Origin: Selaginella moellendorffii
Lineage: Eukaryota; Plantae; Lycopodiophyta
Assembly (NCBI RefSeq): GCF_000143415.4
Contig: NW_003314332.1
Location: forward strand, 310,001 to 374,000
Reading direction: 5' to 3'
Length of the DNA stretch: 64,000 nucleotides
The notes beneath the pieces were generated by a model that ran no database searches, was not told the origin of the DNA, and saw only the letters and a list, made by a program, of their open reading frames with translations. Shown here in pieces: positions 2,701 to 58,662 of this stretch (its first letter is position 1; each line of letters opens with the position of its first letter). A program made the position numbers and the translations under genes.

Positions 2701-3145
2701 GTCTTTGGTGTGGCTACTGCTTCCTCTTGATATTCGGCACTTGTGCTTCCTGGTATGTTCACCATGGAATGGCTTAGGACCACATTTAGAAATGGCATGA
2801 GGCCACATGCCATCTTGGGCCCTTGCAATTTCATGGCTAGCGTATTGTCATGTATGTTTTTACTTGCCTGCAGCTGTGTGTATATCAAGATGGCATGAGG
2901 CCTCATGCCATCTTTGGCCCCTGCTAGCCTATTGCCATATTCCTTTTGCCTTGCTGCAACTGTATATATTTTTGTATGGGTGACTAGTCACGCACACAAA
3001 AATATATACAGTTGCAGCAAGGCAAAAGGAATATAGCAACAGGCTAGCAGGGGCCAAAGATAGCATGAAACTGAATAGGCTAGGAACAGCACCTCCTTTT
3101 GCAACAAGCAACTGTCGAGACCATTTGAACCTCCATCGCTATTTT

Positions 3146-3780: not shown

Positions 3781-3897
3781 TCTGAAAATGCAGAAAAAAA
3801 GTTAAGACCATACAAAAAATGATTGGAGAATGGCCTAAATCATAACATACCAAACAACCTCAATAGCATCAGGCCACATGCCATTATTCAAACATGC

Positions 3898-4879
3898 TGG
3901 GTTCAAGTCCCGACCCCATACTAGGGCGTGGTGAGGTGAGGAGTATAGGGACACCTATATTCCATTGTCATGGGCTCTTGGCCGGGGAGGCTAACTTAGG
4001 CACACCACTAAGTGGGGGGATGCCCCCGGAGACATTCAACAAGTCGTAGGATAAAACGAGACGTTCGATGTGGGCATCGAACTTCTTCTATGGGTGGTGG
4101 AGTTGTAAGGAACCAACTCCCCGAGATGTCGTAGGCTAAAGGATCCCCAAAAGCTTGACCGAAATGACAAAGAGTTCATCGGATGGGACCAAGTCGAGGA
4201 TCGAGTCCAAGACCGACTCTAGGACCGAGTTTGAGATAGAGTCCGGAATCGAGTCCGAGACCGACTCGGGGACCGAGTTCAAGTTCGAGTTCGAGACCGA
4301 GTTCGAGACGGAGTCCGAGATCCAAAATCGGGTCTGAGACCGAGTCCGAGGTCGAGTCCGAGGTCGGGTCCGAGATCGGGTCCGAGATCGAGTCCGAAAT
4401 CGAGTCCGAGACCGAATCCGAAGTCGGATCCGAGATCGAGCCAGAGACTAAGTCCAAATACTAATACGGGTCAAGAGGTGAAAGCCCAAAGTGTGCGTCT
4501 CCCAGGGGGGGGGGGGCTGCAGGGGGTTCCAAAAGTATAGTAGGGATAGTGAGGTCCAGGAACCAGTTTTGAAGGGACACTCTAGTTGGGCTTCCAAACC
4601 GACTTGAGGTTAAGACTGGGACCAAGGGGCCTTGGGTGGGAGTGAGCATGGACTTGGCTGGTGCCGGAGGGGCCATCCAAGGAAGTGCTCAAGAGCAGCT
4701 CCCACTCCCGAAAGGGAAACCGACTGCGGTGCTCCGGGCTCAGGTGGAGTGGTGCCCCACTTGAGTACCTTGTGGCTCATTGGTCCTCGCCCTTCTGGGG
4801 GCTTGGGCCTTCCCTTCGGGATGGAAGAGGGGGGGTAGAGGTACCCATACCGGGCCGTTAGGCCACGGTGTTTCGCCCC
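3898..4879 (+). mobile_element. Fragment of the family-A Gypsy LTR/3' region, inverted relative to the adjacent pol
   Basis: Reverse complement of ~35165-36148; contains the shared LTR core gtgaaagcccaaag..Gn..ggggttcc. Confidence 0.8.
4185..4460. repeat. 6/12-bp tandem repeat (gagtccgagatc-like) inside the family-A LTR
   Basis: Visible periodicity; homologous array at ~35605-35860. Confidence 0.85.
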
Positions 4880-7800
4880 CGCCACTTATCTCGATCTGAG
4901 ATGATCTCTTCCGGTCTTCCCCGCACTCGAACCACTTGTTCGAAGAACAACTTTGCCACACCTTCCGCATCCACCTCCGTTGTGGTGGGTATGAAATGTG
5001 CCATTTTCGAAAATCGGTCCACCACCACGAATATCGCATCAAACCCCTCGCTTGGGGGGAGTCCCGTGATGAAGTCCATCGTAAGACATTTCCACGGGCG
5101 ATCTAGAATTGGGATGCTTTGCAACAAGCCCCCACTAGCCTTAGTCACGGCTTTTACCTGCTGACATGTTGGACATGTCTTTACATAGTCTTGGACGTCC
5201 TTAGCCATATCTGGCCAATGGTACTTCCTTTTGAGTAAGCCCATCGTCTTGGGCACTCCACCGTGTCCCACAAGAGGTCCGTCATGACACTCTTCTAAGG
5301 CCACCTTCCTTAGTTCCCCTTCTGGAACATACACCCTCGTTTGCTTGTAATAAATGAGTCCGTTGCGTTCCGCATAGCCCGTTTTCTCTTCCATTGGCAG
5401 CTCACCTCTCTGGTGAGCTTCCCGCGCCTCTAGATTCCTCAGCAACACTTCCTGTGCTAGACCATCGTTCTCATATGCTGTCCGCACATCGTCCCAGAAG
5501 GTTGCTGTTGCACTGGATATTGCCAACCTCAAGCTCGCTTTTCGACTTAGCGCATCCGCCACGATGTTGCTCTTCCCAGGCTTGTACAGAATTTCGCAAT
5601 CAAACTCGGCCAAGGCATTGGCCCACCGACCTTGTTTCCCTCTTAGGTCTGGCTGTGACAAGAAGTGTTTCGTTGCCACATTGTCCGTGTAAACCTTGAA
5701 GTGTCTCCCAAGGTAGTGTCGCCACTCCTTGAGCGCCTTGACCACCGCAAACAATTCCTTCTCGTGGGCAGGCCACTTCCGTTGAGCCTTGTCCAGCTTC
5801 TTCGAGAAGAACGCTACCGGATGGTTGTCTTGCTTCAAAACTGCGCCCAACGCAAAGTCCGAAGCATCCGTTTCTACCTCAAAGTCCTTACCAAAGTCTG
5901 GTAATGCCAATACGGGAGCCTTCCTCAACTTCCCTTTGAGGTGGACGAATGCCGCCTCGCATTCCGCTGTCCACACCATCTTCCCTTTTCCTGTTTGGTC
6001 CGTTAAGGGTAGGGCTACTCTCGAATAGTGTCTGATAAACTTTCGATAGTAGTTGCATAGCCCCAGGAATGCCCTCAACTCGTGTATATTGGATGGTCGC
6101 TCCCATTCCTGGATCGCTTGGACCTTCTCCGGGTCCACCTTGAGCCCGTCCTGGCCCACCACATGCCCGAGAAACTTTACCTCTTGTTGAGCAAAGTCAC
6201 ATTTGCTCTCTTTAGCATACAGCTTGTGTTCCCTTAGTTTCTCAAACACCTTCGCCAAGTGTTCGGCATGCTCCTCTAGCGTCTCGCTATAGATCAGGAT
6301 GTCATCGATATAGACGACCACGAAGTGATCCAGATAGGGTACAAAGATGTGGTTCATTAGCGCCGAAAACGTTGCCGGCACATTACATAGCCCGAAGGGC
6401 ATCACCAGAAACTCAAAGCTCCCATACCTCGTTCGACAGGTTGTCTTCTCGACATCTTCCTCGGCTACCCTGATCTGGTAGTATCCTGACCTTAGGTCAA
6501 TCCTCGAGAAGTATTTTGCCTTTCCCAACCTATCGAACAGGTCCTCAATCCTTGGCAAAGGGTACTTGTTCTTCTTTGTATACTTGTTGAGCAACCGGTA
6601 GTCTATGCACATGCACATAGATCCATCTTTCTTTTTCACAAATAACACCGGCGCCCCATACGGCGACTTGCTCAACCTAACATACCCTTTGTCCACCAAC
6701 TCCTCTAGTTGGCACTTGAGCTCCTTGAGTTCTTTTTCATTCAAACAATAAGGGGGACGAACCACTGCCTCAGCACCCTCGACCAGCTCAATCTTATGTT
6801 CTATCGGTCCTGCTGGGGGCAGCCCCGCCGGTAGCTCCTCCGGCATGGTATCCTGGAATTGGTCCAACACCCGCTGGATCACTAAAGGTACTTCTTCCAT
6901 TCCTGTCTTTTTGTCACTCTTCACCGAGAGTAAGCACAAAAAGGCCGCCTTAGTTCCTTTAGTGAGTTGTCCTCTCGTGGACACCAGGTTTAAGCAGGAA
7001 TCTTTGGCCTTGCTTTGCCCTACCTTTAGATCTTGGGCCTCCACCCTAGATCTTCTTCCTTGGGCATTCGCCAGTACCACAAGGTTTCTACCTTGTCCAT
7101 GCAGGGCTACCATGAATCGATTGAACCAGTCCATTCCGAAGATCACGTCAAATCCCGCCATGTCCAACACGGTGAAGTCCATGTCCACCTTCCAAGTCCC
7201 CACTTCGACTCTCGCTTGTCGAAGTACCTCATCGGTGCTTTGGCTACCTTGAACAAACTCTATAGTCCTTGGTTCGCCTAGCCGCTGCACCGTTAGTCCG
7301 GCTTGCCGGACTATGTCTGCAGCCACAAAATTATCCGAAGCACCCGTGTCAATAAGGATTTTAACAAAGCTACCTCCGAGCTTCCCTCGGAGGGCTAGTA
7401 GATGTCGCGAACGACTCTTTACCAAAGTTGCTCGTGTAATGAGTAACTTTGAGTTAGGGACTGGATCACATACCTCTGTTTGGACTTCACTCGACTTGAT
7501 GGCCATATTGGCTCTGGCCTTCTTCGGGTAGGGACATTCCCTCGAGAAGTGTCCCGCTTCACCGCAGTTGTAGCATACGTTGTTTCCCACGCTGCTATAT
7601 GACTTGACCTTCTTATCCGTGGGTTTGTCTCTTTTCGCTTGACTCCCCCACGTACTCGCTCGCTGGCCACCGGATCTGCCTTTCCGGAACCTCGAGGACT
7701 CATTCTTAGAGAAACTCTTCTTGAATTTCCCTTTGCTAAACGTTCCCCTTGGTTTGGCCCCTTTGCTAAACGTGGATCCCGACCCCATCGTGTTCCCCTT

Positions 7801-8322
7801 TCGCAGGTTATCGTTGAAATGCACCTTGATGGCCGCATCCAACGCTTCTTTGTAGTTGGTCGGGTTCCACCGCATTACGTCGCTGCGAGCCCAGGTTTGC
7901 AAACCTGATATGAAGGCATGGAACGCATCCATATCCCCCATGTCTGTGACAAGTATCCTCTTTGCCATAAACCCATTCACATACTCCTGAATGGTTCCGG
8001 TCTGCTTCAGCCTACTCAGCTCATCCCTTAGATGCAGAGTAGCATTCGGAGGAACGTAAGTTGCGCGGATCCTCGCCTTCATCATTTCCCAAGTGGCCAC
8101 TAGTCCTTCGTTGGCCTCTGTCGTTCTCCACCAAGACTTGGCATTATCTGCCAAGTATGGTTTTGCACATGGGACCTTCTCCGAGCTTGGTAATCGCAAC
8201 GCTCGGAAATAGTCCTCCATATCGTAAAACCAATCCTCCACCACCTTATAGTCGTTCACTCCCTTGAAGACCTGTGGGGGCTTTGGTTTGTACTTGGGAA
8301 CTGCCTGAGGGACTGATTCCAC
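4858..8322 (-). CDS. Ty3/Gypsy gag-pol polyprotein (gag, CCHC knuckle, aspartic protease, RT, RNase H, integrase truncated in the core)
   Basis: [80 protein letters not shown]. It ends abruptly at IISDRD where it joins an inverted LTR piece. The true gag start is probably near 8674, with a frameshift (~8515) and an in-frame TAG (~8330) upstream of this ORF. Confidence 0.95.
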
Positions 8323-8718
8323 TTCGGTCTATTCGACCTTGTCTGGTTTTGCCTCAGTCCCTGCCGAAGGGTCTGCACCTTCTGCGCTGCCAGCATCCGC
8401 AGTCTTTCGCTTTTTCTTCCGCTTCTCGTCACGCTTTAGCTTGCGTACGAGAGTCTCTAGCAGGGCATTGGTCTGTGCCAATTGTCCTTCTAGAATCTTC
8501 TTTTGTTCGAATTGTCAACCGAACCTCACCACTAGACTCCTGTTTGGAACTTGCCTCACTGGAGTCCTCCTCATGCAAGGATTCCTCATCCATCGCCTCC
8601 TGTTCGACCGGAGGCTCCAGCTCTGGAGGAGGTTCCATCTCTGCCTGGGTTCGCTTACGTCCTGCCCTTGCCATCTCCCAGCAATCCGCCTCTATCCTTC
8701 GCTAGAACTGAGGAAGAG

Positions 8719-8730
8719 GCTCCGATACCA
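8719..8730 (-). promoter_or_regulatory. Primer-binding site (tRNA-iMet type) of Gypsy element A1
   Basis: Minus strand TGGTATCGGAGC, 3 nt after the LTR-terminal CA. Confidence 0.9.
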
Positions 8731-8733
8731 AAT

Positions 8734-8928
8734 TGTAAGCTCCTGAATTTGGACTTCCCGGGAGGTCACCCAGCCCAGTACTATTCAAACCCAAGGACGC
8801 TTAACCCCAACTATCCCAAGACCCTTAACCGATTGGAAAAGGGGGTGCACTCTTGTTCATAGGCCCTTTCCCTCTATATTTGAACCCCTATGGATCGTCT
8901 CTCGAGTCGTTTCCTTTGGTTGCTTACA
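8734..8928 (-). mobile_element. 195-bp Cassandra-type LTR with a 5S rRNA-derived segment (8751-8805), positioned as the 5' LTR of Gypsy A1
   Basis: TGTAAGC...GCTTACA termini. About 12 differences from the TRIM LTRs at 13779-14772. Minus strand GTTAAGCGTCCTTGGG...AGTACTGGGCTGGGTGACCTCCCGGGAAGTCC resembles the 5S A-box/IE/C-box region. Confidence 0.9.
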
Positions 8929-11900
8929 TTGAGATGTTGGTACCCATACTATAGCTTTGTCTATGAAGAGGTTGTGTACCAATATGAGTCCATCTTATGG
9001 TCTTCACTCTAGTTTCGACTAAGTGTTGATCATGCATAGCTAGCTTCTTCAAGGCATGCTCAGAGCTATTGACTAGATGTGTTGGTGAGCTTATCGCGGT
9101 TGAGCTGGATTTGAGTGGTCATTTAGTTCGTGCTTGTTCATGAACCTTTATCTCATACCTAGGGTATTATGTTCATGTTGAATGAGTGTGTGACTCGATG
9201 GCATGAGTTTACTGTTTGGGTCTTGTGAAGGCAAGTTGAAGAGTGATTGTTAGTTGCTTTGCAACTAGTGATTACTTGTAAACTTAGTCGAGGATTGTTG
9301 ACACTTGCTTCATTTGATGAAGATTTATTAGTGATGGGTTTGCTTTACCGGATGGTGCTGCGAAGGATCGTATCATTAGACTTACATGGGTTTTCCATGT
9401 TGGCATATCGATTCTACCTCTGTCGATATCATTTGGTTGCATTTAGTTCATAATTTGGATTTCATTGAATGGTGATTCACTTCTTGAGGAAGTGTTATCT
9501 GTAACTGAGTTTTGCTGAAGGATTAGTCTCGGATACTGAGTAAAGTATTTTCGACCTGGGTTAATTTAGTTGCAAAGGGAGTTTTGAGTCGTGATTCACT
9601 TGTGCTTTCTTCTAGCTTTGTTATGGTGTTGATGGCATTGAAGTGATGCTTTGTCATTGACATTGTTGTTGAAATTCAAGTGAGATGAGATATCTCTCCT
9701 TAGGATTGATAGAGTTTTATTAATCTTGATAAAGATAATGTTGATAATTTGGTTATAACTTTGCATTATTGACATTCATGCATTTGCTAGTTAGCAACTA
9801 TGTTGGCATTTTAATGAACTGAGTGGCAATTTTGAGTTAGTTGTGTTCTAAACGAGATTATTTAGTAAAGGGTTGAGCTTTGGCTTTTCCTTGAAAAGTG
9901 ATTTAATCATGGATTACACTAGCTTTACAAAAGGATGAGTTAGTGATTGATATTGGAATATTTAAATCCTTGTTAGTTTTAAGTTGGGATATATTGATCA
10001 TTGATGATTCTTTTTGTGTTTGTTATAAAGTGAGTTATGTCTTGCTATAGATGGATTCATGGAGGATCGTTTCATGATCACTTGTTGAGCATAGCTCCAT
10101 TATGCTTAACTTTTGGATTGATGTAGATGTACTCTTCATTAGCTTTGCATTATGAAGCTTAGCTTCTGGATATATTGAGGAGTGGCTATAGACTTCTTCG
10201 AGCTTTTGATTCCTTGAGTTTTTATACTTATTGTTCCATTTGTTAGAAGTTGTTGGGAAAGGCATTTTGGGCTCATTAGTTTTAATGTTGAAGTTGGCTT
10301 TTGCATCTAGCAATCATTGGTGATGATTGACTATCATCGTAGATAATTGATTATCCTTGTCAAAGATTTTTGCTTGATTATTATTGATATAGAATGATTT
10401 GCCATTCTGCGGGGTGGTAGATTCCTTCTTTGAAGATGATTATGCACATCTCTTTTGATGGGATGATTGATGATCTTTCATGATGGTTAGTTATGTTATT
10501 TGATAGCTTATGGCTTTTCGCAATACCACATGTTCTTTGTGGTTTGCTCTGGATTGGTCTCTAGGGTTTGAGACATCAATAGGATGTTACTGACACTTGC
10601 TTAGGCAACTTGAGTTCCTTGGTGTTATTGGCTAGGATCTATCTGGATTAGCTAATGCGATAATTGGCATGAATGGGTGTTTGTTGGTCTTACCACATTC
10701 ATTTTATTCTATTGATTGTTGCTTGAGTTAGTTTTGATAGATTTAGATGTTATTTCCTTTGAGTGATACATTCGCGAGTATTGTGCTTGTTAGTCAATAA
10801 TACTTTGTGTTCTTTGAGTTCTCTTTAGTAAATTGTTTGGCATACTATTTACCATTTTCTAATATATTGATAAATTGATATTGATATATAATTTGATAAA
10901 ACTAGTTAAGTTTTATCATTGAGTTTTCTTGATGATACGCTGGCTATTGAATTTTGTAGGATGGTGAATCTTATGTTTTCCAATGATAGTGATCTTGGTG
11001 GTTCCTATCCTATAATACTAGTTTATCGAATGATAACTTACTTGGAATATTTTTGTGTTCTAATCTAAGATATATTCACTGATAATTAAGTCTCTAAGAT
11101 ATCATTGTCTCTGACTTTGATATTGTCCATCTATTGATCATTGAGTTTGGGCTAGTAATGGGCAAACTGGCTTCGACACTTTGTGTATATGCTAAAATCT
11201 TTAGTCATGGGGTAGCTACTATCGACTGGTCATATAACCCGCCTCTCTGTCGATATTCCTTATTCCGTTGAAAGGGCGTGACCATGTAAACAACTCTAAC
11301 TGCCTGTTTACAGTAGTCTATCTAAACCTTACCGACGGGTTTGTTATTGGCTTGCACTTGCTAGTATCAAGAACCGCCACGATATTGAGATTGGTCCCTC
11401 AATATTTGCTAGATGATAGCTTACTATATCTACCAAACGCCCTTGCTATCATATCCTTTGTGTTAGTCTCATTTTGGTCCCAAATGCTATTTATGGAAAG
11501 TGTCTAGATTTGCTCATTTGGCATATCTACGAAATGTAGAGATTGGCTTAAACATAATGGTGTTCGTCCTGTATCCAAATTTGCAATCTAGTGTCATTCC
11601 ATATTTAGTAAGTTTCAAGCGAAAGCCCAAAGCATGTGTTCCTCAAGGGAAGGGGGGCAGGCTATGGGGGGTTCCAAATGTATAGTAGGGATAGTGGGTA
11701 GGTCAAGCATGGCCGACCAACCTGAGGCATAGTCTAGCTCCCGCTTGCATGCCTGTCCTTGTTCTACGTCCAGCTTGGGTCAAAGCCTAAGTTCTATTCT
11801 ATGCTAGCTGGTGGAGTACCCATGTCCTTGCGTTAGGCCACTGATATGCCGAAATAGTGCCAGACTCTGTTTGGCTCCGTTTTGCGTGCTGGTCTTGGCA

Positions 11901-12193: not shown

Positions 12194-13711
12194 GTGCCGC
12201 AACATCTAGTTCTTCCTTTTCTAACTTAGCCTTTGCCTCTTCCACAACATCTCTAGCAGGAGTTTCCTCCTCTCTATTCACCCGTCTAGAGGTTTCAACA
12301 TCATCAGCACGGTTCCGTTTCACCATTCCACTAGTTGCATGCATGCCTCTATCAATAATTGAACATGTATACAACATTCTTACCAAATGGTGCAATCCAA
12401 GTAATCCTACACAGGTTGCTTTGGATCTACTAAAAAAGTTTCTGCGTATGCAACTTGAGTCAGGAAATCCGACAAAAGTTGGATAGGAATTGCTGTGACA
12501 TTTCCTCTGATACCAAATATAGCACACCTAAATTTGGAGCCAAACTCCAAGCCCATTGCTCTACGAAACGAGGGTCTAGTACAATCCCACGAGCACCAGC
12601 TCCTTGTATCCAACACTTGCATGCAAAATGGTGTTAGACGAAGTCTGGCACAATTTTGGCATAAAAGTCTGACACCATTTTGGCATACCGGTGGCCTAAC
12701 GCGAGGAGGGTACCCCAGTGATTAGAGCAGTGTGGAGCTTGCACTTAGACCCAAGCTAAATGCAGAACAAGGAGCGACACAGCCTAGCGAGAGCCAAACT
12801 AATGTCTAGTTGCACATGCATTCCAACCATTATCCTTACTATATATTTGGAACCCCCCACAGCCCCCCCCCCCCTCCCCCCCCCCCCTTAGGAACACATA
12901 CTTTGGGCTTTCACAAGCCTCCCTTAGTACCAGGAGTTAGTCTCTGAGACAAGTTCGAAACTTATTAAATATGGAATGTCCCTAGATTACGAATTTGGGC
13001 ACGGGACGAACACTATTGTGTTCATGCCAATCTCTACATTCTATAGATATGCCAAATGAACAAATCCAAACACTTTCCATAAATAGCATTTAAAACTAAA
13101 ATGAGACCAACACAAAGGGCATGATAACGAGGGTGTCTGGCAGTCACGATAAGCTATCATTCAACGATATTGGGGGATTAGTCTCAATACGTGGGTTTCT
13201 TGATACTAGCAAGTGCAAGACAATGACACGAATTTCTCAAACTAGGCCGAGTATGCTCAACAAAAAACACATAGGGTTCCTACCTTATGTTTATCTAATT
13301 TAAGTATAAGGTCATTGACTAGTTTCTCAACTAGCTCAAGTGGGAACGATAAAGGGAATCAACTATACCAACCTTCTACCCTCATGGCAGTAAGGAAAGA
13401 GTGTCCATAAGGACTGACCAATAAATATCTTTCGATACCCAAAGTCACATTTGCAACAATAATATTCTATACTTTCAAGTAGTTGTGCCATATTAGGAGC
13501 TAAATCTTGCAAAAACATGTGGCATTGCTTTTGAAGCACTAAAGCCAATCCCTCTCTAGTAGCAAAATCTAGAATTTTATATATAGGAAACTCTAGTTCA
13601 ACTTTACAAAAGAAAGAAGTGGAGGTGAAAGTGGAATATTGGTAGAACTTGGGGATGGAGATAGGGATTGATATAAAATGCTTAGGAGCTAAATACAAGT
13701 ACTAATGACTT
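12194..13711 (-). mobile_element. Duplicated 5' end of Gypsy family B (leader, PBS ~12504-12515, LTR 12518-13458, plus ~250 bp of host flank)
   Basis: Colinear and highly similar to 16765-18281, including sequence beyond the LTR terminus. Confidence 0.85.
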
Positions 13712-16700
13712 AAGTACCCGGACCACAAATCAAGTCGCATAAAATACTTAGCATTTAAGAGTTAGTCAAATAAGTCATTGTAAGCTCCTGAGTTTGGACT
13801 TCCCGGGAGGTCGCCCAGCCCAGTACTATTCAAACCCAAGGACGCTTAACTCCAAATATCCCAAGACCCTTAACCATTTGGAAAAGGGGGTGCACTCTTA
13901 TTCATGGGCCCTTTCCCTCTATATTTGAACCCCATGGACCGTCTCTCAAGTTGTTCTCTTTGGTTGCTTACAATCCACCACGCTTCCCTACAAGTTCACG
14001 CCCTCGTGAACAGAAGCTGAGAGCCGCAGCTCTCCTGAGAGCCTCGCTCTCTTGACACCCTACCCCTCGGGTCGAGCCCAGTGGGAGCAAACTGGACCAG
14101 CCAGATGTCAATCAACATGTGGTGCGATTCCCTTAGCCAACCAACAGAGTCAGACCTGAGACCCGCTCCGATACCAAATGTAAGCTCCTGAGTTTGGACT
14201 TCCCGGGAGGTCGCCCAGCCCAGTACTATTCAAACCCAAGGACGCTTAACTCCAAATATCCCAAGACCCTTAACCATTTGGAAAAGGGGGTGCACTCTTA
14301 TTCATGGGCCCTTTCCCTCTATATTTGAACCCCATGGACCGTCTCTCAAGTCGTTCTCTTTGGTTGCTTACAATCCACCACGCTTCCCTACAAGTTCACG
14401 CCCTCGTGAACAGAAGCTGAGAGCCGCAGCTCTCCTGAGAGCCTCGCTCTCTTGACACCCTACCCCTCGGGTCGAGCCCAGTGGGAGCAAACTGGACCAG
14501 CCAGATGTCAATCAACATGTGGTGCGATTCCCTTAGCCAACCAACAGAGTCAGACCTGAGACCCGCTCCGATACCAAATGTAAGCTCCTGAGTTTGGACT
14601 TCCCGGGAGGTCGCCCAGCCCAGTACTATTCAAACCCAAGGACGCTTAACTCCAAATATCCCAAGACCCTTAACCGTTTGGAAAAGGGGGTGCACTCTTA
14701 TTCATGGGCCCTTTCCCTCTATATTTGAACCCCATGGACCGTCTCTCAAGTCGTTCTCTTTGGTTGCTTACAGTCATCAATGTGAGGCAAAGGATAACTG
14801 TTTTTAACTGTGATCTTGTTGAGTGCCCGATAGTCAATACACATCCTCATGGTTCCATCCTTTTTCATAACAAAAAGGACCGGCACTTCATAAGGTGACT
14901 TGCTTGGTCGGATATAACCTTTGTCAAGAAGCTCTGTGAGTTGCTTTTTGAGTTCAACCATCTCCTTGATGCTCAATCAATATGGAGCTTTTGTAGGTGG
15001 TTTAGAACACAGAATAACCTCAATCCGATGATCAACCTCACAGCTCGGAGGTAGCCTTGGCAACAAATCCTTCGGGAAGATATCCTGATTCCGCTCCAAC
15101 AACTCCAATATCTTCTTTGGTATAGGATCAACCCCGTCACTGATCCGAATTGAGTCACCCACACACTCAGCTTCCATCACTTGAACCCAAAAGGTCCAAC
15201 ATCCCTTCTTAGCTGCTTTTTGAGCGGCTCTTGCAATCAGGAACTTAGCATCCCAATCCTTTGAGGAGCACTTTTGCAACTGGAAGAACACATCAGGACA
15301 TCCTTCTAACTTCAATGTGATGCAACTTTGTCCAGCACCATAAATCCCTTTTATATATTTGTTGAAGAAATCCATACCAAACATCATCTGAAAATCTGGT
15401 ATCTTCAACACTACCATGTCCACTCTTTCTTTCCACTTGGATATTTTTATTGGAACATCACTCACAAACTTTCTGGTTACTTGCCCACCTTTTGCAAACT
15501 AGAAGTGCACAGGCGACATTTGCTCAGCATTCAATCCTAACAACTTAACTAAGTCTTTGGATATCACACTATGCGTAGCTCTCCTGTCAATTATCACTCG
15601 GATTTGGTGTCTGTAGACAAAGCCTACCAAGTACATCAATAGATTAGTGTTTGCATTGACTGCCAGAAAAGCTTGAGGAAAGCAACGAAAGTAACTCACC
15701 TCCTTTTCCTCATAGTCTGCATTGACCAACTCGTCAACCCTTCAGCTTCACCACCATTGTCTTCCCTCATGACATTAACACGAGACATTGTCTTATGCTT
15801 GTTGGGACATTCCGAGGATCTATGTCCTGACTCTCCACAATGGAAGCAATAACCCACACTATCTGTTCCGCTAGGAGCAAGTTTTGCAAGTTGCTACTGT
15901 TTGTACCCACCAGAAGGAGGAATAAAGGGTCTAGGGCTAGAAGAAGCTACTGGTGGTCTTGAACCACCACCACCACCTTTGTTAACCGTTGCTTATGAGC
16001 CCCCGGGGCAAAACCTACCTTCCACCCTCTGTTTTCGATCACTTTGTTTATTCCCAGAATTCTTATTTTTGTCCGAGGTACTAGCATACGGCTGCTGATA
16101 TTGTTCTATGAGTGAATGGCTAAAGGCAACTTGTTGTGCTGCCTCCTTACACTCTAGGTACATCTTTGGCTTAAATTTCAAAATCTCATTGTGAGAAAGT
16201 GAACTTAAACCCTTTAGGAAATAACTCTGAGCATCTTCGTCACTCATATTTGCAACCATAATGTGCTTCTGAGAAAATGCATTAACGTAATGCATGAGAT
16301 CCCCTCACTACTTTAACCGCCGCAGCTCTGCGTGAAGTCTCAGACCAAGATCATCCGGCAAGTATTCCTTATGGATATAAGACCGCATCTTGGTCTGCCC
16401 TTTTTCAGCACATACCTGGCACCACCAAGTTTTGGCATGATCGGTGAGAAAAGATTGCACACACGCAACTTTCGTATGATCATCTACGTCTACCGCTATG
16501 AAATAATTTTCCATATCGTAGACCTAGTCTGATAGTCCCGCATGCTAAAATTGGATGGTTTTAGAGGCTTGAACTTTGAAACTCATGCAACCGGGGGCAA
16601 TTGTAGAACTTCATCATCCTCAAAACTTGAAGAAGAGTCCGGTTGCTTAGGCTTAGCTAGTCTAGCTGCCTCAGCTTCTTTCTTCCTCTTCTTGTTCTCC

Positions 16701-18690: not shown

Positions 18691-18894
18691 GTTGTGCAAG
18701 CTCTAAATCTTAATTTGCCTATGTGTTTGAATTCAAAATGGTCACTGTACTTTTGTACCACTGTCACATGCCCAAAAAAGGCTTATAAATATAAAAGGAA
18801 TAGCAACATGGATAAATTCATAACAAAAGGTAGTGCGTTCTATAAAATAGAAAAGTGTTGCACCTATTTCAAACCTTAGGGCAGAGCACAAGAG

Positions 18895-19866
18895 ATGGCG
18901 ATTGAGCATCCGGCGTGGCGGAAGAGGGTGCGGCGCAGCACGACCTGGCTGGTAAGAGCCATCGCGAGCTTCCTTGGCGAGTTCTACAAATCATCGACAC
19001 AGATCAACGAGGCAGCGGCGGCCCTCTGCCGGAAGCAAATGCTAGTGGATTTCGTGTACCAAGTCAACACCATCAACGGCGAAGGCTACGATTCCATCCC
19101 TCAGACGCGGGCCGTCATTGATGCAGTTACTCGAGGAGACGCGCAGCAGCAACACGAGGAGGATTTCATTGTCACCGTCAACCTGCACGACGCCTATCGC
19201 CTGGTGGAGCAAGCTGCTGGCGAGTCCCGGCAGCCAGTTTTGACGATATCGGCCATCCAGAGGCTCCACAAGGTCCTCTTCCAGAACCGCGATGGATGGG
19301 AGGCGGAGGCGGGCAGATTCAGGGACCGCGACGTCTGGGTTCGCCTCAAGGACGGCTCCTTTCACCAGTTCGTGGAGCACTCCCAGGTACCTCACAGGTT
19401 GCAGCAGCTCCTGGGCGACACCAACACCAAGCTGGACGACGTCTTCTGCACCGAGCAAGAAGATCTTGCAACCTTTACTGCTAAGCTCTTGCACCTGGCA
19501 GTCGATTTCTTCCTCAACTTCGAGCTTATTCATCCGTTTCGAGACGGAAACGGACGGGTCGGAAGGCTCCTGCTCACCTATCTCCTCTCCAGCATCACAC
19601 CTCAGCTGGCCCCCAACAATGCGTACCTGGTGGACAGTGAAGACATTGTTGACTATGGCTTGTACCGCAGCTGCTTTCAGGAGGAGGGGCAGCACGCATC
19701 GTCTTCAGAGACCCGAGATCCCGGCCGACTCATTGCCATCTACACCGAAGGCCTCTATGTCGGCTGGAAGAAGTTTTTCGTGGCGGCGGGGATGGAAGCT
19801 CCACAAACGTGTAGGATTGATGATGATCCAGCTCACCTGGAAGACAACACTCTCAGTGAAGGCTAA
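18895..19866 (+). CDS. Fic (Fido) domain protein, putative AMP transferase, 323 aa, intronless
   Basis: Canonical HPFRDGNGRVGR motif, upstream LTISAIQRLHKVL and AGRFRDRDVWV flap elements; GC-rich coding-like ORF. Confidence 0.9.
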   Translation: MAIEHPAWRKRVRRSTTWLVRAIASFLGEFYKSSTQINEAAAALCRKQMLVDFVYQVNTINGEGYDSIPQTRAVIDAVTRGDAQQQHEEDFIVTVNLHDAYRLVEQAAGESRQPVLTISAIQRLHKVLFQNRDGWEAEAGRFRDRDVWVRLKDGSFHQFVEHSQVPHRLQQLLGDTNTKLDDVFCTEQEDLATFTAKLLHLAVDFFLNFELIHPFRDGNGRVGRLLLTYLLSSITPQLAPNNAYLVDSEDIVDYGLYRSCFQEEGQHASSSETRDPGRLIAIYTEGLYVGWKKFFVAAGMEAPQTCRIDDDPAHLEDNTLSEG

Positions 19867-20885
19867 AGCCGCAGAGACTTACCTTGGCATAGAGAACGAA
19901 AAAAGTTAAGCAACAGGAGATGGATCTCCAGTGGCGTGACGCCCTTGAGTGGCTTATCCACAACAGTGAGGATGTTCGCGCCATGTACCTTTGGAGAGCG
20001 TAGACGTCCACTGAGACAAGCATCGATCATAAGCTAGCAGCCACACAAGATGAACAATATCTTGGCGACGCGAGCAGTAACGTATTGGATTCTATAAAGA
20101 AGAAGAGAGAACCTGTCATTGGAAAGAATCTATAGGTTGAAAGCTTATCAACGCACCAGAAAAACAACAATCTCCAAAAAGTGGAGTTCGATAGCCATCT
20201 CAATGCCTGGCGGAAGCTAAAGCAAACAAAGAAAGGAAAAAAAAACATACGAAAAAGCTATGAGAAGCTTGAAGAGAAGAAATGAGAGATCGCAGCCCCG
20301 ACCTTTGCGGGAAGAGCGCTGGAGCTTCGCCCCATCTGCGAGCTCCACCCGGACGGCCATATTCGCCAGTGCCTCGAGCTCCAATCCGCGAGGAATATTT
20401 CCGGACCTAGCGAATGCGGCCGGATTCGCGATGTCGCGGCTGGCGCGATCGATCGCCGCGGCTGCATTTCCCGCGCTTCTCCCTAGAGCTAGAGAATATT
20501 CTGGAAGGAAGAGGGTATAAAATGGCGGGGCTTGTAGTATTCTTCTTTTGTGCTAGTAGTGATGGCGCTAGCGTTTCGGGTCCCGCTTCGTCCGGCTTGG
20601 CGCTGGAGCGATCTCACCACTGACGCCATGGCTGATGCTATATCGACGAAGATCGCGCAGCCGCTGCCGCCGGAGCAAGATCGTGCGATGCTCGCGCTGT
20701 TCGTGATAGGTAGGGTGTAGAGGCGCTGCTGCTGCGACGGGCGATTCACGACGCATGGACAAGGAAAGACGGGGCAGCGCTGCTCCAGAGAAGTCTAGTG
20801 ATCTAAGCGGGTGTGGGAGATGAATGCAGGTAAAAAGCTAGCTAGGAAAAGATTAAAGGCCTTTTAACATTGGTCTTATGTAGGA

Positions 20886-21683
20886 ATGGAGTCTGTAGCC
20901 GAGACGGCGGTGGCGATTGGAGCAAGCGACGGCGATGGAGGCTTTTACGTGGACGAGGACAAGAAGCGGCGGCTTGTGAGCTTTTGCAACGGGCTGGAAG
21001 ATATTAAGGATTGGATCTCGAAAGATAAGGAGCTGAGCAGCCGAGTGCCCGTGCCCCACCTCTCCATCTGGAGGATCAAGAAGCTCCACACGGTGGTTGT
21101 CGCGAGTCCGACAGAGGAGGATGTGCGGATAGGTGACTATCGGATCCAGCGAGCTTGGATAAAGCAGCTGGATGGCACATTGTCGAGCGAGAGAGTGGCA
21201 CCGGAGATGATCAGGGAGGAGATGGAGCTGCTAGTGGCCGCCACCAACAGCGAGCTGGAGAACGTGTACTACGCGAGGGAGATGGGAAGTGCTGCATTCG
21301 TGGTGGACGTGGCCAAATTGGCAGCGGGCTTCTTCTTGGAGTTCCAGGCGATCCATCCCTTCGGTGATGGGAATGGACGGCTTGGACGACTGCTGCTCAC
21401 GTACCTGGTCTCGGGAGTCACTGGCCTCCACTTCCCCCTTACGCTGCTGCTGGATGTTGGCCCGACAGAGCGGCACTTGGGCGAGGCGAGTTTGATCGGT
21501 AGGGAGGAGTGGCGGTCCTTACTCACGCGGGCCTCGGCGAATGCGGAGGATTTGAGGAGTGTTCCGCCGGCGAGACATGGACAGTATCTCTCTGTTCTCA
21601 CGCGCGCAGGAGCCACGGGAAGTCCGGGAGAGCTCGCAGCTCTCATTGTGGAGGGCATCTTCGTTGCTCTTTGCCGCTTGTAG
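20886..21683 (+). CDS. Second Fic domain protein, 265 aa; possibly the 3' exon of a gene with a decayed 5' exon
   Basis: HPFGDGNGRLGR motif, LSIWRIKKLHTVV, IGDYRIQRAWI. A candidate 54-nt GT-AG intron lies at 20830-20883. Confidence 0.85.
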   Translation: MESVAETAVAIGASDGDGGFYVDEDKKRRLVSFCNGLEDIKDWISKDKELSSRVPVPHLSIWRIKKLHTVVVASPTEEDVRIGDYRIQRAWIKQLDGTLSSERVAPEMIREEMELLVAATNSELENVYYAREMGSAAFVVDVAKLAAGFFLEFQAIHPFGDGNGRLGRLLLTYLVSGVTGLHFPLTLLLDVGPTERHLGEASLIGREEWRSLLTRASANAEDLRSVPPARHGQYLSVLTRAGATGSPGELAALIVEGIFVALCRL

Positions 21684-33486: not shown

Positions 33487-34159
33487 TGTAGCACACCTTA
33501 TCTCTCTCCCCTTAAGCCAACTAGAAAAGGGGCAATTGCTTGATGAGAGAGCCCTTAGTGGCTATTTTATCCCTATTTATTCCCCAAGGTTCCAAGGATC
33601 CATGGTGACAGTATACCCAAATCTCATCCCATGATCACATGCACTACACTCACCCCCCCTTCAGAGATGTCAATGTCCTCATTGACTATTGACTAACAAC
33701 CCCTACTGAGCCAAGGGGAACCAGCACCTTCATTTTCACACTAAATTTACCAATCCTTCCATTGTGTAGACCAGCTATTCCATGTGAGGCAACTAGTCAT
33801 CCATCTGTACCGCAGTCCCATGGTGGATACCTTCGTCTATGGATACTCCACACAAGAGGAAGGACGTACGCATGGATACCCAATACATATGATTTCAAAT
33901 TTAAGGGTAGGAATATACCTTGCTCAAGGGTATATTATATTTTAAGTAGCCACTAATCAATGGGAATCGAACCCGTGCCATTTGCTCCGATACCAACTGT
34001 AGCGCACCTTATCTCTCTCCCCTTAAGCCAACTAGAAAAGGGGCAATTGCTTGATGAGAGAGCCCTTAGTGGCTATTTTATCCCCATTTATCCCCCATGG
34101 TTCCAAGGATCCACGGTGACAGTATATCTAAATCTCATCCCATGATCACATGCGCTACA
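33487..34159 (-). mobile_element. Second TRIM family, 673 bp: LTRs 33487-33648 and 33998-34159 (162 bp each)
   Basis: TGTAGC...CTACA termini, PBS TGGTATCGGAGC at 33984-33995, PPT GAAGGGGGGGTGAG at 33649-33662, no ORF, no TSD. Confidence 0.9.
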
Positions 34160-34791: not shown

Positions 34792-37700
34792 TGTAAGCCA
34801 CAAATTTTTTCTTTCCAATTTGCCAGCTTACCTCGTCTATCTGACCAACACTGCCTTGGCTTTTGCTAAGTTCTCTCGCTAAGGTTCCCGCCTATGGTAC
34901 CAGCTCCTACTTGGTCGTACTTGGTCTTAGCTACTCACTACACAAGCAACGGAGCGTTAGCCATCCATCCACGGATTCCCAAATCTCTCCCAATGCCCCT
35001 CTCTAGGTTAGACTGGACTTAAGGTTCAGCTACACTCCCCGCAGGCACAAACAGCCAAACACATCAAGCCTCCAAGTTCGTAACATCCCTTGGTACAACA
35101 AGACTTGATCATGGGACCCTCTAAATCCCAAGCCTTGGGTGCAACACTTGCTTCGGGACACTGGGGCAAAACACCATGGCCTAATGGCCCGGTATGGGTA
35201 CCTCTACCCCCCCACTTCTATCCCAAAGGGAAGGCCCAAGCCCCTAGGAAGGGTGAGGACCAATGAGCCATTAGGTACTCAAGTGGGGCACCACTCCACT
35301 TGAGCCGGGACCACCGCAGTCGGTTTCCCTTTCGGGAGTGGGAGCTGCTCTTGAGCACTTCCTTGGGTAGCCCCTCCGGCACCACCTAAGTCCATGCTCA
35401 CTCCCAACTCCCACCCAAGGCCCCTTGGCCCCAATCTCAACCTCAAGTTCGTTTGGAAGCACTGTTGGAGAGTTCCTTCAAGACTGGTTCCTAGACCTCA
35501 CTATCCCTACTATACTTTTAGAACCCCCTGCATCCCCCCCCCCCCCTCGGGAGACGCACGCTTTGGGCTTTCACCTCTTGAACCCCTTGACCTGTATTAG
35601 TACTCGGTCTCGGACTCGATCTTGGACTTGATCTCAGACCCGACTTCGGATTTGGTCTCGGACTCGATCTCGGACTCGATCTCAGACCCAATCTCGGACT
35701 TGACTTCGGACTCAACCTCGGACTCGGTCTCGGACCCGATCTCGGATCTTGGACTCTGTCTCGAACTCAGTCTCTAAGTCGGCCTCGAACTCGATTCCGG
35801 ACTCTATCTCGAACTCGGTCTCAGAGTCGGTCTTGGACTCGATCTCAGACTCGGTCCCATTCGATAAACTCTTTGTCATTTTGGTCATGCTTTCAGGGAT
35901 CCTTTAGCCTACAACACCTTGGGGAGTTGGTTTTTTACAACTCCACCACCCATAGAAGAAGTTTGATGCCCACATTGAATGTCTCTTTTTATCCTACGAC
36001 TTGTTGACCATGTCTCCGGGGGCATCCCCCCACTTAGTAGTGTGCCTAAGTTAGCCTCCCCAGCTAAGAGCCCATGACAACGGAATATAGGTGTCCCTAT
36101 ACCCCTCACCTCACCACGCCCTAGTATGGGGCCAGGACTTGAACCTAGCCTTGCTTTACTAGGGGGTTGGGACTCGAACCCAACCTCCATAGAATACGTC
36201 TACGGATTTGACATCCCCGTGGGGAGTCGAGTGTAGTTCCCTACGCCTGGTCAACCTAGCTAACCCATGCTAATTAGCTTACCTTTGGCGCGCCTTTGGG
36301 TCCCAACATATACCATTGCTCAACTTTACAAATTGATATTTTAATTGAACTTTGCATAAGTACATAGAGTTCTGCCTTGTAGAAATTCCTCCACTAGATC
36401 TCGCGCTTCTCCTCCGGTTCCCATGTTGCTTCGCAGTGTGAAAATCCTTTTCACTTCACATGGAACTCTCTCACCTCGCGTCTTTGTCACTTGCTCTTGC
36501 GCGCATTGAGGATGGCCTCGACTTCATATTCCTCTTCCCCTTGGATAACCTCGGGTAAAGGTCTTACTTGGTCCTTGAGAAGCGGATCCTCAAAGTACGG
36601 CTTGAGTAAGTTCATGTGAAACACTGGGTGCATCTTCCCCATCTTTCGAGAAAGTCGGAGACAGTAAGCCACTTTACCGATTCGTGCCTCAATCTCGTAA
36701 GGCCCTGCAAACCTGCTTAAAGAACTCAAGATCAATTCATTTACAGGAATACATGCATTTTTACCTTTGGGTCAACTTTTGGCTGATCCCACTTGGTAGC
36801 CTGAGGTTCTTGGTGTTCAGCCACACCTTCTCCCCAGGTTGGAACTCTACATCCCGGCGCTTTTGGTTCATGTACTTGGTTTGCCTTTGTTAAGCCCGTT
36901 CCAAGGAATCCCTCACGAGATTCCAAATGTTGAGTCTTTCCGCTGTGAATGCCTCCACTACGGGTAACTCTCCATGATACTCGGCCATGCCAAGTTCCAC
37001 AGGACTTTCAATAGCTCGCCCATTGATGACTTCCCATGGACTCACTCCGATACTTGAATGTGGTGAGCTATTATAACACATTTCGCAAGTCCCATTATCC
37101 AATCGGTCTGGTCTCTCGAGAAGTGTTAGTGCTATCAAACTTGACTTACTACCCAATACCTGTCTATGGGTGATAGGCTGTGTTGAATTTCAACTTGGTG
37201 CGATACTGTTCCAGGAGAGTTCTCCAAAACCTACTGATGGAGATCTTATCTCAATCTGAGATAATCTCTTCTGGCCTTCCCTGCATTCAAACCACTTGTT
37301 CAAAGAATAGCTTCGCCACACCTTCCGCATCCACTTCCGTTGTGGTGGGTATGAAATGTGCCATCTTTGAAAATCGGTCCACCACCACAAATATTGCATC
37401 GAACCCCTCGCTTGGGAGGAGTCCCGTAATGAAGTCCATCGTAAGACATTTCCACGGACGATTTGGAATTGGGATGCTATGTAACAAGCCCCCACTCGCT
37501 TTAGTCACAGCTTTGACATACTGACATGTTGGACATATCTTTACATAGTCTTGGACGTCTTTAGTTATATCTGGTTAGTGATACTTCCTCTTGAGTAAGC
37601 CCATTGTTTTGGGCACTCCACCGTGTCTTGCAAAAGGTCCATCATGACACTCTTCTAAGGCTACCTTCCTTAGTTCCCCTTTTGGAACATACACCCATGT

Positions 37701-39701
37701 TTGCTTGTAATAGATGAGTCCGTTGCATTTTGCATAGCCCATTTTCTCTTTCGTTGGTAGCTCACCTCTCTGATGAGCTTCCCGTGCCTCTAGATTCCTC
37801 AGCAACACTTCTTGTGCTAGACCATCGTTCTCATATACTGTCCGCACATCATCCCAAAAGGTTGCTGTCGCGCTGGATATTGCTAACTTCAAGCTCACCT
37901 TTCGACTTAGTGCATCTGCCACGATGTTGCTCTTCCCAGGCTTGTACAGAATCTGGCAATCAAATTCGGCCATTGGGTTAAGAAGTGTTTCATTGCCACA
38001 TTGTCCGTGTAAACCTTGAAGTGTCTTCTAAGGTAGTGTCGCCATTCCTTGAGTGCCTTGACCACCGCAAACAATTCTTTCTCATGGGTAGGCCACTTCC
38101 GTTGAGCCTTGTCCAACTTCTTCGAGAAGAATGCTATTGGATGGTTGTCTTGCTTCAAAACTGCGCCCAACGCAAAGTATAAAGCATTTGTTTCTACCTC
38201 AAAGTCCTTACCAAAGTCTGGTAATGCCAACACGGAAGCCTTCCTCAACTTCCCTTTGAGGTAGACAAATGCCGCCTTGCATTCTGCTATCCATACCATC
38301 TTCCCTTTTCCCATTTAGTCCATTAAGGGTAGAGTTACTCTCGAATAGTGTTTGATAAACTTTCGGTAGTAATTGCATAGCCCCAAGAATGCCCTTAACT
38401 CGTGTACATTTGATGGTCACTCCCAATCCTTGATCGCTTGGACCTTCTCAGGGTCCACTTTGAGCCCATCCTTGCCCACCACATGCCCGAGAAACTTTAC
38501 CTCTTGTTGAGCAAAGTCACTTTTGCTCTCTTTATCATACAGTTGGTGTTCCCTTAGTTTCTCAAACACTTTCGTCAAGTGTTCGGCATGCTCCTCTAGC
38601 GTTTTGCTATAGATCAGGATGTCATCAATATAAACGACCACAAAGTGATCTAGATAGGGTACAAAAATGTGGTTCATCAATGCCAAAAATGTTGCTGGCT
38701 CATTGCATAGCTCAAAGGGCATCACTAGAAACTTAAAGCTCCCATACTTTGTTCGACAGGTTGTCTTTTCGACATCTTCCTCTACTACCCTGAGCTGGTA
38801 GTATCCTGACCTTAGGTCAATCCTCGAGAAGTATTTTGCTTTTCCCAACCTATCGAACAGGTCCTCAATCCTTGGCAAAGGGTACTTGTTCTTCTTTGTA
38901 TACTTGTTGAGCAACTAGTAGTCTATGCACATGCGCATAGATCCATCTTTCTTTTTCACAAATAATACCGACGCCCTATATGGTGACTTACTCAACCTAA
39001 CATACCCTTTGTCCACCAACTCCTCTAGTTAGCGCTTGAGCTCCTCGAGTTCTTTTTTGTTCAAACGATAGGGGGGACGAACTATCGCCTTAGCACCCTC
39101 GACCAGCTCAATTTTATGTTCTATCGGTCATGCGGGGGGCAACCACGCCGGTAGCTCCTTTGGCATGGTATCCTGGAATTGGTCTAACACCTGCTGGATC
39201 ACTAAAGGTACTTTTTCCATTCCCATCTTTTTGTCACTCTTCACCGAGAGTAAGCACAAAAATGCTGCCTTGGTTCGTTTAGTGAGTTGTCCTCTAATGG
39301 ACACCAGGTTTAGGCAGGAATCTTTAGCCTTGCATTGCCCTACTTTTAGATCCTAGGCCTCCACCCTGGATCTTCTTCCTTGGGCATTCGCTAATACCAC
39401 AAGGTTCCTACCTTGTCCATGCAGGGCTACCACGAACCGATTGAACCAATCCATCCCGAAGATTACGTCAAATCCCACTATGTCTAACATGGTGAAATCC
39501 ATGTCTACTTTCCATGTCCCTACTTCAACTCTCGCTTGTTGAAGTACCTCATCGGTGCTTTGGCTGCCTTGCACAAACTCTATAGTTCTTGGTTCGCCTA
39601 GCCACTGCACTATTAGTCCGGCTTGCCGGACTATGTCTACAGCCACAAAATTATCCGAAGCACCCGTGTCAATAAGGATCTTAACAAAACTACCTTCGAG
39701 G
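34792..39701 (-). mobile_element. 5'-truncated, degenerate chromovirus (Gypsy A2): PR-RT-RH-INT-chromodomain and 3' LTR (34792 to ~36213, inner boundary uncertain)
   Basis: Colinear with A1 pol but with many stops. GPY motif (FAGPYEI) and chromodomain EEYEVEAILN..FHVK*KGFSHCEATWEPEE at ~36405-36545. The LTR ends GGCTTACA on the minus strand. Confidence 0.9.
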
Positions 39702-52444: not shown

Positions 52445-52625
52445 ATCGCGGGAAGTTTTAGCGCAGGGATTTCGTCACGAGCGCGCGCCTGAGAAGTAGC
52501 GCCTGGCATTGTGATCGCTGCATTCTTGTGGGGATCCTTGGCCGAAATTTCTGGTTCTTGCTCCAATCTTGCCTCGCTCCAAGAAAGGCCTCTTCTTTGT
52601 TCTCTTCTTCTTTCGAGCGCGAGCT

Positions 52626-58660: not shown

Positions 58661-58662
<2 letters not shown>

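Follow-up and report, generated by a model that had tools for sequence, protein, structure and literature searches.

In the Gypsy element A1, a rare chimera, the long 5' LTR that is normal for its abundant family (family A) has given way to a complete Cassandra LTR. How could the LTR of a non-coding TRIM come to head a coding element? We think it somewhat more probable than the contrary that the chimera arose while RNAs packaged together were being copied, by a transfer of strands at the PBS. The window is the whole 64,000-nucleotide stretch that was analysed, and A1 with its neighbourhood comprises the following features.

8734..8928, minus strand: complete 195-bp Cassandra LTR, standing as the 5' LTR of A1
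8737..8824, minus strand: 5S rRNA-derived segment, by Rfam RF00001 and box A/box C patterns
8719..8740, minus strand: 22-bp junction word, a 7-bp LTR end + 3-nt spacer + 12-bp tRNA-Met PBS
8329..8718, minus strand: leader (44 nt) and broken gag 5' end, ATG at 8674, two stops
4858..8328, minus strand: gag-PR-RT-RH-INT (N-terminal part) frame, stop to stop, 1,156 codons
3896..4879, plus strand: inverted, doubly truncated long-LTR piece of family A, 85.9% identical to 36149-35163
8929..10181, no strand assigned: older unrelated repeat, insertion host of the Cassandra end, 82.8% identical to 32080-33345
13779..14772, minus strand: tandem Cassandra TRIM, three 194-bp LTRs and two 206-bp interiors with a 5-bp TSD

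The A1 LTR has TG..CA ends and is 92.8, 93.3 and 93.8% identical to the three TRIM LTRs. This bears out the original prediction of about 94% identity and a 5S-like segment, in which boxes A and C are now matched. Its length is the majority form in X1 contigs; a form one base shorter accounts for 181,506 of the 1,583,461 depth at 8889. The RF00001 match has an E of 0.0056, and its 33.1 bits fall short of the gathering score of 38. Box A (8806-8795) and box C (8776-8764) have one mismatch each to the published Cassandra patterns (PMC7215508), and the gap between them is 18 nt, as in Cassandra (PMC7215508; Maiwald et al., bioRxiv 2023.07.14.548913). The boxes stand 33 nt before the PBS, and a tRNA-Met PBS close behind the 5S segment is likewise found in Cassandra of ferns. 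The PBS at 8730-8719 is of the tRNA-Met type, has one mismatch to the published PBS and follows a 3-nt spacer, just as had been predicted. The spacer is 2 nt in the TRIM of the window, and a Cassandra form with 3 nt is present in contigs. Upstream of the 5S segment lie a TATA-like word at 8881 and a T4 run at 8840.

The window has no more than four Cassandra LTRs, and the 3' side of A1 carries none. The other three form the tandem array, which sits within the RT of another Gypsy element and has matching LTRs, a PPT and a 5-bp TSD, a set that A1 lacks, there being no second Cassandra LTR. Kalendar (2008) is said to have treated Cassandra TRIMs. Cassandra is non-coding with a short interior and stays below 1 kb (all 81 references are without coding remains), whereas the LTR of A1 heads a long gag-pol frame. 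A1 itself is no Cassandra.

The frame of A1 contains gag, a CCHC knuckle, protease, RT, RNase H, the integrase zinc finger and part of the integrase core, in the order gag-PR-RT-RH-INT that characterises Ty3/Gypsy chromoviruses. The gag-pol frame of the original prediction is therefore present, with 1,156 codons instead of 1,154. The frameshift and stop noted near the start of gag are also there, as the ATG lies in another frame than the 4858-8328 ORF and stops occur at 8431-8429 and 8331-8329. In gag, 4 of 6 tested differences from the majority letter are synonymous; together with a pol that is open for 1,156 codons, this places A1 in a distinct subfamily. Six sense-strand runs of T4 or longer lie between the 5S segment and the end of the ORF.

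What happened at the other end of the element? The integrase sequence stops at 4885 and is joined, at 4885/4879 and with no microhomology, to the inverted 984-bp piece of the family A long LTR. A1 had been called 3'-truncated; the state of its 3' end is more than simple truncation, as integrase abuts an inverted LTR piece. This piece is likely A1's own 3' LTR after later rearrangement. A/T-for-G/C transitions, counted against A2 (a sister copy described below), amount to 1.8-2.0% in the inverted piece. This low decay is like that of A1 pol, at 1.6%; A2 itself has 4.2-6.5% and the host repeat about 6%. A long-LTR piece of similar age at the 3' break fits a product with a Cassandra 5' end and a native 3' end. 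The ages of the Cassandra LTR and A1 pol are inseparable, with 12 mismatches in 194 bp. Neither a second LTR nor a TSD for A1 was found in the window.

A second copy of family A lies in the window.

37245..39700, minus strand: A2, older decayed sister pol copy, 89.3% identical to A1, 5' half missing
36400..36579, minus strand: A2 chromodomain, Pfam Chromo E 8e-09, stops read as X
34792..36149, minus strand: normal long LTR of family A, about 1.36 kb or longer, with an unfixed 5' edge

The match of A2 to A1 begins in the protease region, at 39700. With the 5' half of A2 absent from the window, its long LTR has no partner there, and the start of that LTR is not fixed. With this restriction on the window copy, the different and much longer LTR that had been ascribed to A2 proves from the reads to be the normal 5' LTR of the family. 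A search for a 5S segment in 34792..36149 gave no hit. In contigs of samples S1, S2 and S3 the gag leader runs into the A2-type long LTR, which speaks against one of two options proposed earlier, a family whose normal LTR is of 5S type. The other option, a chimera joined at a common LTR-end/PBS word, is supported by the points at which contigs depart from the window. The 22-bp word is common to family A and a Cassandra form, native-LTR contigs depart at 8740 and TRIM-interior contigs before 8719, so that the crossover falls inside the word. Loose native-LTR ends at 8740 were found in 41 contigs of X1, one of X4 and one of X15 (806 nt long), a separate contig search gave 24, 7 and 9 contigs in X1, X2 and X3, and the end of the long LTR in the window matches them.

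Are there further junctions of this kind? Non-native sequence beyond 8740 reaches at most 4-12% of native depth, and the candidate Cassandra/gag junctions listed about 0.1-0.9%. Among the contig pieces listed (24 of about 445), six hold Cassandra LTR sequence and continue into the gag-side leader for 1-8 bases. They differ from A1 at 1-4 positions, none being identical to it. All six come from one sample, possibly the source of the assembly. Bridging was defined as 31 letters on both sides, the stretch compared being only 55 bp, and 0 of the 6 extend that far. By their letters they look like further, non-identical Cassandra/gag junctions, and some could be TRIM-interior variants. Record 15 of X2 starts at 8711, the position of the first 31-mer that is possible only in a chimera. 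X3 has a depth step of 168.8 with its end at 8744, where the common predecessor of records 20 and 21 (sum 162.1) would be expected to stop, and there is no extra step at 8717. As to expression, X21 has about one read over gag, none across the junction and a few sense-type reads over the TRIM LTR and interior, and X22 has no reads on the 55-bp junction stretch.

These counts bear on two other explanations. One is a misjoin in the assembly, which would have fused copies of Cassandra and of family A at the common word. Among the pieces listed no contig equals the A1 junction letter for letter, the window contains a 178-N gap, a sign that the assembly was scaffolded, and the best run contains 0.70 of the sampled words. 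Usual assembly words are longer than 22 bp, and the common word is only that long. Near-identical junction pieces occur in all three runs, and A1's own piece would be expected to be shorter than the listed ones if other junction copies exist. We consider a misjoin very improbable. The second, option (a) of the original prediction, is a minor coding sublineage that has Cassandra LTRs as a pair and transposes by itself; it would be driven by the TATA-like word of the LTR and not by Pol III. The candidate pieces, whose depth exceeds one unit and whose sequence takes several forms, would suit it, as would the open pol and the distinct subfamily. Against this stand the long LTR as the family norm, the low share of candidate junctions in native depth, the long-LTR sequence of the same age at the 3' break, the lack of a 5S box at all 85 metagenome loci discussed below, and the argument that autonomous elements need a Pol II promoter (PMC10886601). 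Such a sublineage is improbable.

We thus return to strand transfer between co-packaged RNAs. The Gag of family A would package Cassandra RNA. Plus-strand strong-stop DNA made on Cassandra, carrying its whole LTR and the PBS, would then anneal through the PBS to the minus strand of a family A cDNA, or RT might switch template at the PBS. The product would consist of Cassandra LTR, PBS, A interior and long A LTR; having usable TG..CA ends, it could be integrated, and a later non-homologous inversion or deletion would have destroyed its 3' half. It would be a dead end: no R region is common to both of its ends, and transcription by Pol III from the 5S promoter would run into a T4 run at 8229 in gag. 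Strand transfer is favoured because the crossover lies exactly at the PBS, the site where the second strand transfer anneals by an established mechanism (PMC6894440). Against it, the locus bears DNA-level rearrangements (the 3' break, and A2 without its 5' half), there is no clear homology between Cassandra and family A beyond the common word, and the LTR end with PBS is common elsewhere.

Another explanation is a DNA deletion or ectopic recombination through the 22-bp word between a Cassandra and a family A copy in the same orientation, with no co-packaging implied. All sequence from the Cassandra 5' LTR to the PBS of family A would have been lost in the repair. Summed depths in X1 amount to about 0.1-1.2 million for gag and 1.7-3.8 million for the LTR, whereas long low-depth pieces have 115-200. 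With both families so abundant, neighbouring insertions must occur. The locus is heavily rearranged. As clear homology is confined to the word, an event guided by homology would in any case fall within it. However, there is no remnant of the A 5' LTR upstream. The Cassandra end is cleanly inserted at 8929, with the empty-site continuation present in 45 X1 contigs; in the window search the continuation of the host repeat, hence a second target copy, was absent. Without the upstream remnant, a deletion needs two independent nearby insertions and exact repair at 22 bp. Moreover, the 3' break has no microhomology, unlike the junction, and several distinct junction-like pieces would be harder to obtain in this way. 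We therefore regard a DNA event as rather unlikely, if clearly less so than a misjoin or a sublineage.

How specific is the word? Among 85 metagenome loci with the LTR-end/PBS pattern, none has a 5S box within 600 bp upstream and three (L005, L006, L072) are followed by Gypsy pol sequence of like orientation. Of these, L005 and L006 group with Tekay-like proteins, and none of the three is from family A. An LTR end and PBS common in unrelated families are weak evidence of partnership. Since the word is widespread and a DNA deletion gives the same 5' junction, the original prediction went too far in holding that either of its options implicates the family as mobiliser. Deeper homology was sought in 10 pairs of Cassandra and family A sequences with 200 shuffles each. 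The best alignment of the Cassandra LTR with the long LTR, which covers only the TATA-like word, was reached by 7 of 200 shuffles, that with the inverted long-LTR piece by 26 of 200, and that of the TRIM interior with the family A 3' region by 175 of 200; the TRIM interior and the family A leader have only the PBS in common. Such homology was thus discarded as evidence.

There is a further question of concern, which element mobilises Cassandra, an ancient and widespread parasite of plants? Cassandra is reported from ferns and angiosperms, and our literature search turned up no report for lycophytes; a pectate lyase of the window has its best named hits in Selaginella (67%), Macleaya (60%) and Adiantum (65%). 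The helper of Cassandra is stated to be unknown (PMC7215508, PMC10886601), and our literature search found no published helper. Sequence homology missed the helper because coding elements have LTRs that do not resemble the one of Cassandra. A junction formed at the PBS would record, independently of homology, which particle carried Cassandra RNA. Repeated low-copy junctions would be fossils of co-packaging and would make family A a Cassandra helper in this plant. From the sequences at hand it is plausible that family A packages and reverse-transcribes Cassandra RNA, and we give about an even chance to a family A with its normal LTR as the helper and the junctions as its fossils. It seems most doubtful that the junctions belong to a few coding chromoviruses which propagate themselves with a 5S segment in both LTRs, and which would be an autonomous Cassandra as well as its helper. 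If TSD-bounded copies with a Cassandra 5' and a long-LTR 3' end occur only with family A, a Galadriel-type helper would be named in a non-seed plant, and the genome of any plant could be searched by the same recipe. Should the junction stem from a DNA deletion, it would be a rearrangement of the ordinary kind, in a region rich in repeats.

LTR swapping in soybean was reportedly described by Du (2010). In recombinants of reverse transcription, as in A1, an LTR and an interior of different families meet at a replication signal. Those known arose within families, between related subfamilies or between TRIMs, whereas the donor in A1 is a Pol III-type TRIM without clear LTR homology to its coding partner. 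Chimeras between families that arose by template switch have been documented (PMC6894440, PMC1950507, PMC13570524), as has a chimeric TRIM-08 with the LTRs of TRIM-01/05 (PMC13570524). For intermolecular transfer of the plus strand that yields chimeric LTRs, our literature search found no publication. TRIM-autonomous pairs, including a Gypsy partner in Selaginella, are given by Gao et al. (2016; PMC4717578); in these a coding element bears a TRIM-like LTR, similar in size and with 79-98% identity, and is the putative helper. There the TRIM is a deletion derivative and the LTR is common to the whole family, whereas here the family has a different LTR and only rare copies carry that of the TRIM.

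By its sequence features family A is likely a Galadriel-type chromovirus. The RT-RH region groups with a Riccia element and angiosperm elements bearing the (Y/F)(L/Y)(I/V)KWKG chromodomain motif (FastTree 1.00, UFBoot 81). The Galadriel label rests on this motif (PMC3350952), the tree being one without a named Galadriel sequence. A1 shares the single gag-pol frame and CCHC knuckle of Galadriel elements of non-seed plants (SM2-Galahad, PMC3350952; REXdb, PMC6317226) and differs in that its 5' LTR is replaced. The long LTR of family A, the tRNA-Met PBS of A1 and the group I chromodomain of A2 agree with them as well. The C-terminal integrase chromodomain of chromoviruses is present in A2 only, being lost from A1; aromatic-cage positions 1 and 3 are there, and position 2 is a stop. 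The Tcn1 clade, mostly self-priming without a tRNA PBS (PMC6317226), was rejected because A1 has a tRNA-Met PBS. Tekay, Reina and CRM, with seed-plant hosts and no aromatic cage, were also rejected, as A2 has cage residues and A1 lies outside the Tekay-like group. The RT phylogeny proposed along with the original prediction thus separates family A from Tekay-like elements, with Reina and CRM unlabelled in the tree and the Galadriel-type placement made by motif. The best full-length pol identity in the search was 55%.

The minus-strand element A1 (4858..8928) appears to be a real but rare chimera of Cassandra and a chromovirus, and not a member of a family with a 5S-type LTR. The original prediction described it accurately: an LTR about 94% identical to Cassandra and containing a 5S-like segment, then 3 nt, the PBS, a Gypsy leader and a gag-pol frame damaged at its start.

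8928-8734, minus strand: LTR of A1, 195 bp, complete

This LTR is 92.8-93.8% identical to the three LTRs (194 bp each) of the TRIM array, a tandem Cassandra at 13779-14772 with 206-bp interiors and a 5-bp TSD. All four LTRs match Rfam 5S rRNA at 33.1-34.5 bits, below the gathering score of 38. Boxes A and C, searched with the pattern in the available text of PMC7215508, were found in A1 with one mismatch each and the canonical 18-nt spacing; the array copies stayed below the cut-off that A1 passed. Behind the LTR and 3 nt follow a tRNA-Met PBS, a 44-nt leader and gag-pol. A frame change and two stops break the gag start; the open frame then runs for 1,156 codons through gag, CCHC, protease, RT and RNase H into the beginning of integrase. 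The Cassandra 5' end is a clean insertion into an older repeat, of which a second copy at 32080 continues uninterrupted; the empty site at 8929 is shown by 45 contigs of sequencing run X1, and the continuation of this repeat beyond the insertion is absent within the 64-kb window.

Is the 5S-type LTR the norm of the family, as one option of the prediction had it? Parts of 7400-9100 were present in 20 runs, and contigs were compared over 7700-9100. Gag-leader contigs diverge from the window at 8740 and continue as the end of the long LTR of the older sister copy A2 (34792..36149), in 41 contigs of X1 and one each of X4 and X15, which represent three samples; the X15 contig (806 nt) contains about 670 nt of long LTR. 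Thus the normal 5' LTR of this family, family A, is the long one, in which no 5S segment was found, and the option is not supported at family level. Note that the following depths are sums over contigs and not copy numbers, for a junction stretch of 55 bp. The depth leaving at 8740 was 212,842 in X1, 8,303 in X2 and 18,048 in X3, and that of the word made of PBS, 3-nt spacer and Cassandra end was 51,395, 1,026 and 28,672; what remained past 8740 did not exceed 6%, 4% and 12%, respectively, of the total on the gag side.

Among the 24 pieces listed of about 445, 14 were of native type, 4 of TRIM type and 6 held Cassandra LTR sequence while reaching the gag side. These six extend 1-8 bases into the leader, differ from A1 at 1-4 positions and have 0.14-0.9% of the native depth. 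None of them bridges the junction with 31 letters on each side or is identical to A1, all come from sample S1, possibly the source of the assembly, and the shortest could be mimicked by TRIM-interior variants. Two observations favour genuine junctions. Record 15 of X2 starts at 8711, the first 31-mer possible only in a chimera. In X3 a depth step of 168.8 ends at 8744, where the sequence preceding both records 20 and 21 (162.1 together) is expected to end; these two records also fully account for a rise at 8717. We regard an assembly misjoin as very improbable. Reads of X4 and X21 on 8749-8805 belong to further 5S-like sequences whose flanks differ, one of them running into a long T stretch. 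They are transcribed in X21 and may stem from the 5S gene of the host or from another repeat derived from 5S.

At the 3' side, the A1 integrase ends at 4885, where an inverted 984-bp piece (3896-4879) adjoins it with no microhomology at the join. This piece is 85.9% identical to the sequence following the A2 chromodomain. With A2 as reference, A/T-for-G/C transitions amount to 1.6% in A1 pol and 1.8-2.0% in the piece, so the piece is about as young as A1; the values are 4.2-6.5% for A2 and about 6% for the older host repeat. The piece may be A1's own 3' LTR, and that A1 belongs to a small lineage bearing Cassandra LTRs at both ends seems improbable. Degenerate 12-bp tandem repeats lie within the family A long LTR at 4194-4464 and 35578-35874.

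How did the chimera arise? The crossover falls within a 22-bp word formed by LTR end, spacer and PBS. In the second transfer of reverse transcription, plus-strand strong-stop DNA anneals through the PBS. Two RNAs are co-packaged, and this DNA is the species moved in that transfer (PMC6894440, available text). Strong-stop DNA templated by Cassandra, if it landed on a family A minus strand, would give exactly a Cassandra LTR, PBS, A interior and long A LTR, with TG..CA ends usable by integrase. Such a product agrees with where the junction lies, with the 5' end being clean and with the young piece of long LTR at the 3' break. The chimera would be a dead end, as its ends would share no R region and T4+ runs (six on the A1 sense strand, the first at 8229) would terminate Pol III, and this would explain why chimeric copies are few. 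We lean towards strand transfer. The main rival, less likely in our view, is a repair event in the DNA that used these 22 bp to join two neighbouring insertions. The abundance of both Cassandra and family A and the rearranged state of the locus speak for it; against it, an exact short-homology event is required and repeated junctions are accounted for less easily.

Template-switch complexes are documented in PMC1950507, and the accessible text of PMC13570524 describes chimeric TRIMs and favours generalist mobilisation. Our literature search found no report of a Cassandra LTR joined to gag-pol. A1 is akin to known interfamily recombinants. In the available text, PMC7215508 terms the autonomous partners of Cassandra unknown, PMC10886601 states that nothing points to the partner family and expects no long LTR sharing, PMC4079214 and PMC10946416 name no helper, and the Maiwald preprint counts coding remains in 0 of 81 Cassandras. 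PMC4717578 assigns coding partners to 11 of 289 TRIM subfamilies, including a Gypsy partner in Selaginella; its main text, as available, does not place Cassandra among them, and its Table S16 may bear on the point.

The suggestion that family A mobilises Cassandra is weaker than claimed. The shared end and PBS are common across many families: they occur at 85 metagenome loci (two Tekay-like), with a 5S box upstream at none of the 85. Between Cassandra and family A (10 pairs, 200 shuffles each) there was no clear homology past them; the best alignment covers a TATA-like word, and 7 of its 200 shuffles scored as high. A putative helper role stands or falls with strand transfer and with specificity to family A. 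The value of the chimera is that it makes Cassandra's helper a question that a simple genome search could address.

To which clade does family A belong? An RT-RH tree was built from 121 proteins out of 136 (7 with coverage under 85% and 8 without match left out). A1 groups there with support 1.00 with angiosperm elements, a Riccia element and unnamed sequences, separate from the Tekay-like group; in an IQ-TREE subset of 34 rows (31 of these proteins and 3 loci) the UFBoot value is 81. The angiosperm elements bear the Galadriel chromodomain motif as given in the available text of PMC3350952. A2 (37245-39700), whose 5' half is missing, matches A1 pol at 89.3% identity. Its chromodomain is preserved (Pfam Chromo, E 8e-09); aromatic residues occupy two of the three cage positions, and the remaining one is a stop. 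The Galadriel label is likely, judged from motif, Met PBS and cage, the tree containing no named Galadriel sequence. Most Tcn1 elements lack the Met PBS and the cage is limited to non-seed plants (PMC3350952, PMC6317226, available text). The A2 integrase is interrupted at 36713-36764 (minus) by 52 AT-rich nt, intron-like and GT..AG-bounded, which carry a 4-bp direct repeat. Close to where the long-LTR region begins, 36125-36191 (minus) holds two words that we take to be tRNA B-box-like; its sole Rfam match is a weak one to mascRNA (E 1.1).

Further elements lie in the window.

33487-34159, minus strand: second TRIM; its LTRs (162 bp) are 95% alike
28727-29871, plus strand, and 12518-13456, minus strand, with related pieces: family B long LTRs, Met PBS

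The second TRIM has the same PBS variant, and neither 5S segment nor TSD was found in it. Its LTR ends with the last 8 bases of the family B LTR (29871), and a short motif is common to this TRIM and the Cassandra LTR (1 of 200 shuffles). Long LTRs of families A and B have a common 83-bp promoter-like block (79.5%, E 2e-15). Two adjoining Fic/DOC-domain frames lie in this plant genome at 18880-19866 and 20868-21683 (plus), and host genes at 52515-61624 (plus) encode a cold-shock domain plus zinc knuckle, pieces of hybrid histidine kinase and pectate lyase. The host itself is probably a lycophyte or a fern. A near-perfect (94%) MITE-like palindrome of 166 bp occupies 2903-3068.
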